Sequence record: MT446416.1
Reading direction: 5' to 3' (one strand)
Length of the DNA stretch: 64,000 nucleotides
Source: Escherichia virus TH47
Under the pieces are notes generated by a model. That model worked only from the letters and a program-made list of their open reading frames with translations, had not been told where the DNA came from and made no database searches. Every line of letters starts with the position of its first letter. Within the stretch, counting starts at the first letter, position 1. Made by a program: the position numbers and the translations under genes. Below are positions 12,225 to 36,427 of this stretch, piece by piece.

Positions 12225-12252
12225 ATTATACAGTACTACGAACGTTTGTCAA
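12225..12252 (-). promoter_or_regulatory. sigma70-like promoter
   Basis: TTGACA-aacgttcgtagtactg-TATAAT on the minus strand (16-nt spacer). Confidence 0.55.
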
Positions 12253-16183: not shown

Positions 16184-16211
16184 ATTATACAGTACTGATA
16201 TCTTATGTCAA
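16184..16211 (-). promoter_or_regulatory. sigma70-like promoter
   Basis: TTGACA-taagatatcagtactg-TATAAT on the minus strand. Confidence 0.6.
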
Positions 16212-31948: not shown

Positions 31949-32076
31949 ATAGTTCTCCATATATTATGGAGTATTTATATGTAAGAAAAATATCATTTTT
32001 GAGGTCAATATCAGAATTGCACTGATTATTCAGACTTACAAGGTCCGTGTTATACTCTTTTAACTAATCGACCTGA

Positions 32077-33449: not shown

Positions 33450-34154
33450 TTACAAGCCATGTCTTTTCAAAAATCTAGCAAACACATTTTTGGAAGCACC
33501 ATAGCTTTCATATATACTAACTTTTTTCTCACCATTAGTCAAACGTTTTTTTATATCTTCTATGTTATCTTCTAAACGTTTTACGTTTGCAAATTTCTTA
33601 GATGGTATGTTATTTTTGGTTCTATAATTCAGTACTGAACCTGAACTGATATTCATTATTTTAGCAATTTCAGTATCTAACAAACCTTGGTTAATATATT
33701 CTTTTACCTTTTCATAATCAACTGATGTTTCACCACCCTTTGTATTTGACGGAGGCTTGACCATTTTTTGTGAACACTCAACACTACAATATTTTGTATA
33801 TGATTTCACTTTAGTATGTCTACGGGAAAATTCCGTATTACAACAAGCACATACAAATGAATCATATCGTGCTTGTACTCCATTCTTATGTGTTTTATAA
33901 CGATGTTCATCAACATGAAGTATTTGTAAATTAGACAAATCATCATTTGTGAAATCATTATCAATGTGGTCTGCTTCTTCAGACTCAGTTAAATATCTAC
34001 CTTCTTGTACTGCTAATAGATATCTGGCATATTGAGTACTGCTTCTATCAGTTGGAGAATTATAAAGTATTACAGTTCTTCTACCTTCAGGGTTTATCTG
34101 TATATACCCATTCTTCCAATCATTACTATATGGATATTCTAATTTTATTTTCAT
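33450..34154 (-). CDS. HNH homing endonuclease with C-terminal HTH-like region (234 aa)
   Basis: EADHIDNDFTNDDLSNLQILHVDEHRYKTH; starts 19 nt after the tRNA-Met 3' end and stops 8 nt before tRNA-Asn. Confidence 0.75.
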   Translation of the reverse strand: MKIKLEYPYSNDWKNGYIQINPEGRRTVILYNSPTDRSSTQYARYLLAVQEGRYLTESEEADHIDNDFTNDDLSNLQILHVDEHRYKTHKNGVQARYDSFVCACCNTEFSRRHTKVKSYTKYCSVECSQKMVKPPSNTKGGETSVDYEKVKEYINQGLLDTEIAKIMNISSGSVLNYRTKNNIPSKKFANVKRLEDNIEDIKKRLTNGEKKVSIYESYGASKNVFARFLKRHGL

Positions 34155-34173
34155 TATTTTATTTCAAAGTTTG

Positions 34174-34478
34174 TGAGCCATCTGTGAGTCGAACACAGTA
34201 CCTAACGATTCGTATAATCTATAGTTTTCACTATAGTACGGACTATATCATCATCCCATAGGGATGCCGGACGCTAATGATGTATTACACAGTAAGATCG
34301 TACTGTACCATCTAGTCTCTGCACCTTCCCAATACGCTTATTGGGCTTGGCTCAGGATTGTCATCACCATTACGTGTTAAGATTTCCCTGAATTCATCCA
34401 GTTTTTCAATCACCATTACTGATGAAAGTCACCATTGTCGATGAGTCGTTTGCTCTAACCACCGTGAGCTAATGGCCC
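34174..34478 (-). tRNA. tRNA-Met/Ile2-type (anticodon CAT) interrupted by a 230-nt intron
   Basis: 5' exon (34478-34441) GGGCCAT-TA-GCTC-ACGGTGGTTA-GAGC-A-AACGA-CTCAT. 3' exon (34210-34174) AA-TCGTT-AGGTA-CTGTG-TTCGACT-CACAG-ATGGCTC-A. The joined exons give a canonical cloverleaf. Confidence 0.85.
34211..34440 (-). mobile_element. group I intron (IC3-like) in the anticodon loop of tRNA-Met
   Basis: Follows U36 and ends in G. Contains CAGGGAAA, CAATCCTGAGCCAAGCC, GGGAAGGTGCAGAGACTAGATGG and TAGTCCG, which match the core of bacterial tRNA group I introns as I remember them. No ORF inside. Confidence 0.8.
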
Positions 34479-34733: not shown

Positions 34734-35126
<393 letters not shown>

Positions 35127-35483
35127 ATCACCAACTTTAATTAAAAAAATGGATGGTTACGCTTTTAAACGCCGCTGTTAATTCAGCTTTATAACCACCC
35201 GTTTTAACTTGCCTTTCGGCTACCTTGACGTGGGGGCGTACAGGCTACTAAAAGCAACTTCTGTAAACATATTTCCACACCTTACCCTTTTAAATAAAAG
35301 TCCATCCGGTTTTCCAGTTTGGTGAAGGACTGTCACCTCTAGTTTAAACCTGCTAGTCAAGTAATAATTGCCTATCGTCCAATTATCAAACCCGTCTAGG
35401 TTAACATTCACCACTTCCTAGAGTGCCAGAGATCTTGTTCTGGATTTCATCGACGTAACTTACACCATATACGTCTGATTGTG
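35127..35483 (-). ncRNA. ORF-free structured leader or candidate ncRNA (~355 nt)
   Basis: Starts just after promoter 35490-35518. About 45% G+C in a counted line. Hairpins include GCC-GAAA-GGC and GGTGA-cagtcct-TCACC. Ends ..CCAUCCAUUUUUUU 20 nt before the next ATG. Track ORF 35220-35414 is implausible. Confidence 0.3.
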
Positions 35484-35489
35484 GAATTC

Positions 35490-35514
35490 ATTATATCAGT
35501 ACTGAACTATTTAG

Positions 35515-35518
<4 letters not shown>
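35490..35518 (-). promoter_or_regulatory. sigma70-like promoter (extended -10)
   Basis: TTGACT-aaatagttcagtactga-TATAAT; the -35 overlaps the stop of 35515-35871. Confidence 0.6.
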
Positions 35519-35898: not shown

Positions 35899-36101
<203 letters not shown>

Positions 36102-36105
<4 letters not shown>

Positions 36106-36266
36106 ATTCGTACCAGTAGTTCAATTAAGTACATTTCATATGCTGGATCGTTGATAAGTTTATCATACAGATGTGACTCTGAAATGAATTCCCAATGATA
36201 TTTTCGCCATTTACCAAAACCTGCATATCTAAAATTAATGTCATTCATCCATTCTTCATGTGTCAT
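36102..36266 (-). CDS. 54-aa MTHEEW-family micro-protein, copy B
   Basis: MTHEEWMNDINFRYAGFGKWRKYHWEFISESHLYDKLINDPAYEMYLIELLVRI; ATGA overlaps on both sides. Confidence 0.6.
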
Positions 36267-36427
36267 AATCGTACCATTATTTCAATAAAGAACCACGGAT
36301 ATACTTCATGGTTTATAAGTTTATCGTATTCTGCTGGGTCTGATATAATTTCCCAATGATATTTTCGCCAACTACCTATACCCGAATATCTAACATTAAT
36401 GTCATCCATCCATTCTTCATGTGTCAT
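36263..36427 (-). CDS. 54-aa MTHEEW-family micro-protein, copy A
   Basis: MTHEEWMDDINVRYSGIGSWRKYHWEIISDPAEYDKLINHEVYPWFFIEIMVRL. Confidence 0.6.
   Translation of the reverse strand: MTHEEWMDDINVRYSGIGSWRKYHWEIISDPAEYDKLINHEVYPWFFIEIMVRL

Follow-up and report, generated by a model that had tools for sequence, protein, structure and literature searches.

The DNA analysed in this work is a stretch of 64,000 nucleotides (nt) of Escherichia virus TH47 (MT446416.1), hereafter the window, and the element in question is the segment 35489–35127, which comprises 363 nt from a sigma-70 promoter to the ATG, at position 35126, of gene 34734–35126. The local genes are on the minus strand and the segment is located inside a phage transfer RNA (tRNA) island, where ARAGORN identified tRNA-Thr, tRNA-Asn, tRNA-Ser, and tRNA-Arg genes between positions 32001 and 37097, all on the minus strand. 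When 3 kb surrounding the segment were used as a query, they matched, at 88–95%, the Rak2/121Q/PBECO4 jumbo phages of Escherichia coli, Salmonella, and Klebsiella (Asteriusvirus and Alcyoneusvirus). We propose that the segment probably consists of two separate, unannotated genes for structured RNAs, arranged in tandem in this Rak2/121Q-like jumbo phage and here called modules A and B, whose products would be stand-alone phage RNAs acting in trans. The first-pass annotation of this DNA had described one structured leader or non-coding RNA of about 355 nt between two paralogous genes. Its option of an independent RNA is supported, as a pair of RNA genes instead of a single one, and comparison of the relatives revealed compensatory changes in both modules. 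The flanking genes present no detectable paralogy (BLASTP E = 8.8).

The promoter 35490–35518 precedes both modules in this phage. It was earlier called strong, and it is indeed a close consensus match, with a hexamer spacing within 16–18 nt. The segment has a G+C content of 40.2%, which is above that of the window (34.3%) and of the flanking genes (around 30%) but does not reach the 45% estimated in the first-pass annotation.

BLAST of the segment against 50,697 phage records returned full-length matches at 97–98% in about 25 jumbo phages of E. coli and Salmonella, and at 80% in the Klebsiella relatives. Positions 31–217 of the query also matched, at 85–92%, unrelated T4-like phages of Proteus, Morganella, and Shigella (Bragavirus) and T5-like phages of Proteus (Novosibvirus), and the core of module A matched T4-like phages of Aeromonas as well. 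In these phages outside the Rak2-like group the match to module A is unannotated and occupies the roughly 200 nt that separate two tRNA genes of the same orientation. This arrangement is found in the T4-like phages PM2, Pm5461, and SdyM006, in the T5-like Proteus phage 1, in the contig L024, and in the Aeromonas phages avDM6, CC2, P19, AP1, and ZPAH1. The flanking pairs differ, being tRNA-Gly and tRNA-Asp in PM2 and SdyM006, tRNA-Leu and tRNA-Ser in Proteus phage 1, and tRNA-Pro and tRNA-Thr in the Aeromonas phages, and the 5′ boundary of module A is always 0–3 nt after the encoded CCA of the upstream tRNA. Further occurrences, in a 120-kb IMG/VR contig (L007) and in five metagenome contigs, came from a motif scan. 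Among jumbo, T4-like, and T5-like phages, module A keeps 86–91% identity, compared with 70–77% for the adjacent tRNA-Gly(UCC) genes, which indicates strong constraint on the RNA itself or its recent exchange.

Across the phage, genome, plasmid, and metagenome sets that were searched, module A was found only in phages of Enterobacterales and Aeromonas. The core motif gave no match in 185,579 bacterial and archaeal species, represented by one genome each, and BLAST detected neither module in 5,426 complete E. coli genomes or 72,556 plasmids. Looser motif scans of IMG/VR returned 15 extra loci, all of them rejected by the covariance model described below, and BLAST with the most divergent members of module A revealed no new groups. 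By tblastn, neither gene flanking the segment has a homologue at the module A loci of the other phage families, and no protein gene shared beside module A between phage families was found. ARAGORN and the Rfam tRNA model (RF00005) call no tRNA in 35127–35489 or in the equivalent gaps of the relatives.

Two local variations of this arrangement were observed. The metagenome contig L024 (2103–2609) has a single tRNA-Arg(ACG) with a copy of module A on each side, the two copies having diverged to 78% identity; this is the only case of tandem duplication. The Aeromonas copies carry an extra conserved extension of about 85 nt before tRNA-Thr (L005 2082–2167, with equivalents in L011–L016), 84–95% identical among those phages, which contains a GGUUGAU/AUCAACC hairpin and is dissimilar to module B.

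For the structure of module A, 20 distinct sequences were aligned and used to build a covariance model (R1), to which all matches were realigned (alignment A4). The model recognizes one copy in the window, with 218 bits. The fold comprises 42 pairs, in which 88.5% of the 833 pair cells are paired, against 31–39% when the partners are shifted by 1–3 columns. Compensatory changes occur in 23 of the 42 pairs, and the observed values were reached by none of 500 shuffles. Helices P4, P6, P7, and the pseudoknot are 97.5–100% paired and P5 is 80–93% paired; the lower figures of P2 and P3 are due to the Aeromonas rows, which are misaligned by one column in A4. The G-U pairs are valid on this strand only, what fixes the orientation of the RNA, the same as that of the tRNA genes.

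The four hairpins named in the first-pass annotation (P2, P3, P7, and the GNRA hairpin of module B) are all present at the positions given in Table 1, and P2, P3, and P7 are kept by compensatory changes in the relatives. P2 appears in the compensating versions GGGAU/AUCCC, GCAU/AUGC, and ACUAAAAU/AUUUUAGU, as read from the sequences, and P3 as CCG/CGG, UCAGA/UCUGA, and a long form capped by UUCG in L007. In P6, CUAG/CUAG was replaced by CAAG/CUUG independently in Ceceduovirus and L024. P7 presents GGUGA/UCACC, GGUAA/UUACC, GGUUA/UAACC, and GGUCU/AGACC, so that its fourth pair is G-C, A-U, U-A, or C-G. The enteric phages form the pseudoknot with CCAC/GUGG and the Aeromonas phages with GCAC/GUGC; for L007, which is shifted at this helix in A4, it was read by eye as CUACA/UGUAG. 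The invariant unpaired motifs are GACGAUA in the P5 loop, UUGAC..GCAG, GAGGU, and the terminal UGG of the 3′ GAUGG. A stem P1 (UUCCA/UGGAA) may also close the module, although the Aeromonas phages conserve it poorly and it overlaps with the pseudoknot; position 6 of the module A RNA covaries with both of these candidate partners.

Other candidate interactions were discarded. A pairing between the 3′ strand of P6 and the 3′ tail is broken in L024, and a small CUGG/CCGG hairpin is unsupported outside the enteric phages. A GGAC/GUCC loop-loop pairing, which presents no covariation, and a UAUGG motif resembling a tetraloop receptor were dropped as being at chance level, as was a 6-nt complementarity between CUUGAC of module A and GUCAAG of module B, judged expected by chance. 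In addition, AGAGGUGA at the junction of P6 and P7 (35339–35325) is a 7-nt match to the extended Shine-Dalgarno sequence, and GAGGU is invariant in the 20 homologues. The match is half buried in P7 and is followed by no start codon; it could be a ribosome contact or a coincidence.

Module B follows module A in the segment. Its alignment (A7) comprises 35 pairs with 99% of the cells paired and 3 compensatory pairs, at low diversity. In its 5′ hairpin, the phage KP13-7 carries the variant CAUGG/CCAUG, and over the first 54 nt of the module there is 85% identity with part of a non-coding mosaic, 650 nt long, of Kuravirus podophages. Its 3′ portion is a three-way-junction unit that recurs at 18 places in the examined loci. 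Nine distinct sequences of this unit were aligned, and its 16 pairs are 96.5% paired, 6 of them with compensatory changes. A U-rich tract follows every copy, and in the relatives the unit closes RNA genes at their 3′ ends and immediately precedes the following promoter. RaK2 has three copies within 1.7 kb (L010 1445–1494, 1826–1875, and 3093–3142), one of them directly after tRNA-Ser.

The CCAUCC-A-U7 element proposed at the end of the segment is present (35156–35143) and lies 16 nt before the ATG. A long-range pairing of this CCAUCC with GGAUGG had also been suggested. CCAUCC pairs locally with GGGUGG (35200–35194) in the recurrent three-way junction, and GGAUGG is conserved in phages without any CCAUCC partner. 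The long-range pairing was rejected because the local stem is supported and the two modules are independent.

Some observations concern the junction unit and the pieces related to module B. Three copies of the unit are also found in L022. RaK2, KP13-7, and L022 have a copy immediately upstream of module A whose DNA also reads as a near-perfect promoter, TTGACA-17-TATTAT, and changes in its stem are compensated, so that both structure and promoter are apparently kept. In RaK2, a stretch of about 110 nt (L010 1334–1441) directly after a tRNA-Gly CCA starts with AAUUCAACAGGU and ends with ACCUGUUAAAG, which may form a closing stem and delimit a third cassette of non-coding RNA. The mosaic of Kuravirus XT32 (L004 1227–1875) contains short modules shared, at 75–98%, with other Kuravirus phages as well as N4-like (G7C) and Klebsiella ones; the annotation calls some of the pieces tRNA-Cys or undetermined tRNAs, and one piece of 54 nt is the 5′ hairpin of module B.

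Table 1. Features of the segment between the promoter and gene 34734–35126 (window coordinates)
Feature	Coordinates	Strand	Description
Sigma-70 promoter	35490–35518	−	TTGACT 35518–35513; 17-nt spacer with TG (extended −10); TATAAT 35495–35490; 11/12 matches
Module A	35298–35489	−	Structured non-coding RNA of 192 nt; hairpins P2–P7, 5′ pseudoknot, 3′ GAUGG
Pseudoknot 5′ strand	35481–35484	−	CCAC, pairs with GUGG 35414–35411; helix 97.5% paired
P2 hairpin	35449–35479	−	AUC-A-GACGUA/UACGUC-GAU; conserved loop UAUGGUGUAAG; GACGT/ACGTC at 35475–35452
P3 hairpin	35426–35443	−	CCAGA/UCUGG, length variable
P4 hairpin	35395–35422	−	UCUAGG/CCUAGA; loop holds pseudoknot strand; 99.2% paired, 5/6 pairs compensatory
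Pseudoknot 3′ strand	35411–35414	−	GUGG in P4 loop; also GTG start of a spurious open reading frame
P5 hairpin	35362–35388	−	UGAUAAUUG/CAAUUAUUA; loop GACGAUA invariant in 20/20 sequences
P6 hairpin	35339–35356	−	CUAG/CUAG inside invariant core UUGAC..GCAG.....AA...GAGGU; 100% paired
P7 hairpin	35321–35337	−	GGUGA/UCACC; loop ends in invariant CCU; 100% paired
Module A 3′ tail	35302–35320	−	AAACUGGAAAACCGGAUGG; terminal UGG invariant, GAUGG kept in 18/20 sequences
Module B	35143–35284	−	About 140 nt; long 5′ hairpin, GNRA hairpin, three-way junction, U7
Module B 5′ hairpin	35227–35281	−	Stacked GGUGUGG/CCACGUC, UACAG/CUGUA, GUUGC/GUAGC
GNRA hairpin	35211–35220	−	GCC-GAAA-GGC; G-C to G-U in 121Q and L020
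Three-way-junction unit	35151–35200	−	GGGUGGU/ACCAUCC closes GCUG/CAGC and GGCGU/GCGUA; terminator-like
U7 tract	35143–35149	−	After the junction stem, 16 nt before ATG of gene 34734–35126

The first alternative to two stand-alone RNAs is that the whole segment acts in cis, as a riboswitch or attenuator leader which controls read-through of the U-tract into gene 34734–35126. The segment does lie between the promoter and the gene, with a stem and U7 just before the ATG, and in all the examined Rak2-like phages with module B a gene follows it directly, namely a homologue of 34734–35126 in the E. coli phages and a different short open reading frame (ORF) in RaK2. The modules are, however, separable from each other and from the gene. 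RaK2 and KP13-7 present a TTGAAC-17-TATAAT promoter between A and B, and JNE01 has a promoter of the window's type followed by module B alone. Module A stands alone in EJP2, followed after 19 nt by tRNA-Ser; in L021, between two promoters; and in L022, before the next promoter. In G17, phAPEC6, and Sharanji, both modules were deleted and the gene was kept, and the same promoter precedes it through the first 37 nt of module A. Close relatives with A only, B only, or neither still retain the downstream gene. Conversely, in four phage groups module A lies between tRNA genes with no homologue of gene 34734–35126 by tblastn. The terminal junction unit is found after tRNA genes too, a position without a regulated gene. 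As for the RNA itself, Rfam 15 returned no riboswitch class, nor any other known family for either module: the whole window was scanned at the gathering threshold, and the segment and two divergent homologues up to E = 10, with matches at chance level only. No conserved pairing was seen that would compete, as an antiterminator, with the terminator-like stem and U7; the only overlapping alternatives observed, P1 and the pseudoknot, concern the 5′ end of module A, far from the U-tract. We consider a leader comprising the whole segment improbable. This reading is largely refuted for module A, and it retains a low probability for module B, which with its U-tract may have a cis effect on the downstream gene. 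A cis role of module B is itself opposed by its own promoter in RaK2, KP13-7, and JNE01, and by the recurrence of its 3′ unit after tRNA genes.

Coding is the least probable explanation and is practically discarded. The ORF 35220–35414, the only one of appreciable size in the segment, has a GTG start and would encode 64 amino acids, 121Q is annotated with a gene (129) of 27 amino acids, and hypothetical proteins are annotated here in several GenBank records. The frame of the ORF is closed by stops after 2–17 codons in 16 of the 20 homologues, its start codon is absent in L007 and coincides with a strand of the pseudoknot, and no Pfam match was obtained. The substitutions are compensatory changes of base pairs and not synonymous changes. 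The earlier statement that the segment holds no credible ORF was borne out. A cis-acting processing element or self-cleaving ribozyme at the 5′ boundary of module A, which would free the 3′ end of the upstream tRNA or direct the maturation of the island transcript, could explain the sharp boundary behind four different tRNAs (Gly, Leu, Pro, and Arg), the 5′ end involved in a pseudoknot, as in several small ribozymes, and the invariant nucleotides of the junction. We regard it as very unlikely. The copies of the Rak2-like phages follow a promoter, without an upstream tRNA, and are still 86–94% conserved, which implies a role of module A independent of the neighbouring tRNA. The Rfam scans described above, at the gathering threshold and up to E = 10, also gave no match to ribozyme families, among which we presume hammerhead, hepatitis delta virus (HDV)-like, twister, pistol, hatchet, and glmS to be represented, and the action of RNase E and RNase P of the host is already enough to explain the boundaries. 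Even less is to be expected from an element acting at the DNA level (homing endonuclease target, recombination hotspot, origin, or promoter array) or from debris of a decayed tRNA or intron. The region has a mosaic composition, homing endonuclease genes and a group I intron lie close to it, cassettes shuffle among phages, and the DNA of the junction unit holds −35-like TTGACA or TTAACA hexamers, with a full promoter in the first RaK2 copy. Against such an element, compensatory changes preserve the helices and comprise G-U pairs that can form on only one of the strands, the orientation is always that of the tRNA genes, module A is conserved above the adjacent tRNA genes, and neither ARAGORN nor the Rfam tRNA model scores the segment.

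Under the preferred reading of two stand-alone RNAs, the family of module A would be composed of phage-only, compactly folded RNAs that travel as cassettes of tRNA islands. Between tRNA genes, module A would be freed by ordinary processing, with one cut by RNase E immediately past the CCA of the preceding tRNA and another by RNase P where the following tRNA starts. This is the accepted route in E. coli, in which, as outlined in PMC2190699, RNase E cuts tRNA precursors 1–3 nt after the CCA and RNase P generates the tRNA 5′ ends. In the Rak2-like phages a promoter occupies the same 5′ boundary, in place of the tRNA, and in this genome a single early-type sigma-70 promoter is predicted to serve both modules. 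Because the 5′ end of module A is paired in the pseudoknot, 5′-end-dependent attack by RNase E would be hindered, yielding a stable RNA. The invariant single-stranded motifs GACGAUA, CAGGnnnAAA, GAGGU, and GAUGG are probably contact sites, in trans, for a protein, for the ribosome, or for another RNA. Module B would be a second cassette, ending in the terminator-like three-way junction and U-tract.

With respect to function, an accessory role in host takeover or counter-defence may be put forward tentatively as the leading candidate for these RNAs, followed by translation or ribosome binding. The first idea is suggested by patchy presence among close relatives, horizontal spread among phages of Enterobacterales and Aeromonas, and residence in tRNA islands, which are typical features of such accessory functions. 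A more specific form is that module A is an RNA-only factor of counter-defence or host takeover, which would travel with tRNA islands and work as a stable, pseudoknot-capped decoy for a host protein (a tRNA-targeting nuclease, a sensor, or an RNase) or dock on the ribosome through GAGGU and GAUGG; this version is speculative and rather doubtful. If it were true, the overlapping P1 and pseudoknot pairings, which track the same 5′ nucleotides, would represent a genuine switch of conformation, with one state in the precursor and the other in the mature RNA.

Besides the constant position of module B before a gene, several points weigh against the proposal of two independent RNAs. The sequences of module A belong to about six lineages and have an effective sequence number of 1.85, and the independent compensatory events are consequently far fewer than the counted cells. 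The folding energies are unexceptional (z = −1.8 over the entire segment; taken separately, module A gave −0.97 and module B −2.5), and the case rests on comparison and not on thermodynamics. The promoter geometry also raises a difficulty. In L021, judging from the spacing, transcription would start with the first A of AAUUCCAC, the 5′ end of the module, whereas in the window TATAAT ends 1 nt before AAUUCCAC, placing the −10 element 5 nt closer; a start about 7 nt downstream of the −10 may clip part of the 5′ strand of the pseudoknot, unless transcripts reading through from upstream are processed. The accumulation of both RNAs is a prediction from sequence, and the counter-defence idea is drawn entirely from the distribution, the horizontal spread, and the tRNA-island setting.

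Module A adds a new family to the structured non-coding RNAs already known from phage tRNA islands. The closest in kind are the small stable RNAs of phage T4, species 1 and 2 (rnaC and rnaD), which, like module A, are small non-coding RNAs located in a phage tRNA cluster and on the tRNA strand. The T4 RNAs C and D are transcribed from the tRNA region and their roles are unknown (PMC3014915). Only a few nt separate rnaC and rnaD from their neighbours, so they are presumably co-transcribed and released by tRNA processing. They are smaller, with 119 and 139 nt against the 192 nt of module A, and, as read from its sequence, rnaC ends in a tRNA-like T-arm and acceptor, while module A has six hairpins and the 5′ pseudoknot. 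Homology between them was discarded: model R1 found no match in the T4 tRNA region (L006) with E up to 1, and no similarity was seen by eye.

ROOL, with about 580 nt, and GOLLD are larger RNAs of the same setting. Both are structured RNAs of phages and prophages that contain pseudoknots and are "often near tRNA islands", with unknown function, and GOLLD often exceeds 800 nt (PMC12286853). Module A shares with them the phage origin and the proximity to tRNA islands, and differs in being far smaller; their Rfam models presented no match in the window or in the relatives. We found no description of the module A RNA in the literature, although a catalogue of about 10,000 viral candidate structures (PMC10690425) could hold it unnamed.

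Two further known systems resemble parts of the segment. Riboswitch and attenuator leaders share with it the position between promoter and gene and a structured RNA with a stem and U-tract, but module A shows no link to a particular gene or class of genes, and it occurs apart from module B and apart from gene 34734–35126. The end of module B recalls an intrinsic (Rho-independent) terminator, with a stem of 7 bp (four G-C pairs and one G-U pair) followed by A and U7 (35200–35143). It differs in that the stem closes a three-way junction of about 50 nt, which is not called by a consensus terminator scan, and in that the U-tract is interrupted in relatives (AAAUUUUAAUUU). The shape of the junction unit loosely recalls a tRNA without the D-arm.

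Phage tRNA islands are increasingly read as tools for translation takeover and for escape from tRNA-targeting immunity. We know of no function established in decades for their non-tRNA members, the T4 RNAs C and D, ROOL, and GOLLD. The family of module A, which is exchanged between jumbo, T4-like, and T5-like phages, is a small and tractable example, with 192 nt, a well-defined fold, and presence in cultured coliphages that include 121Q, PBECO4, and their relatives. Natural variants permit direct genetic tests, since both modules are deleted in G17, A alone is present in EJP2, and B alone in JNE01. The annotation of these genomes can also be corrected, as about two dozen of the matched GenBank records carry ORFs of a "hypothetical protein" over the module A RNA.

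The promoter of the segment is one case of a recurrent phage motif, TTGAC-N8-TCAGTACTG-N-ATAAT, with 6 matches in the window against 0.06 expected. Copies, all on the minus strand, are located at 880–907, 12225–12252, 16184–16211, 35903–35930, and 35490–35518, and CAGTACTG is conserved directly upstream of the −10 element. Directly upstream of the segment (35941–36427, minus strand) there are three tandem ORFs of 54 amino acids, all starting with MTHEEWM, which look like a small array of paralogous genes and have homologous copies in L020 and L023. Downstream, a tRNA(CAU) gene on the minus strand (34173–34478) is split by a group I intron of 230 nt (34211–34440; Rfam RF00028, 100.5 bits), inserted directly after the anticodon. 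ARAGORN misses this gene in the genome, and the spliced sequence gives a clean tRNA-Met(cat) of 76 nt. An ORF for an HNH endonuclease (33450–34154) begins about 20 nt past the 3′ end of the split tRNA gene. In 121Q, the tRNA-Met is different and intronless.

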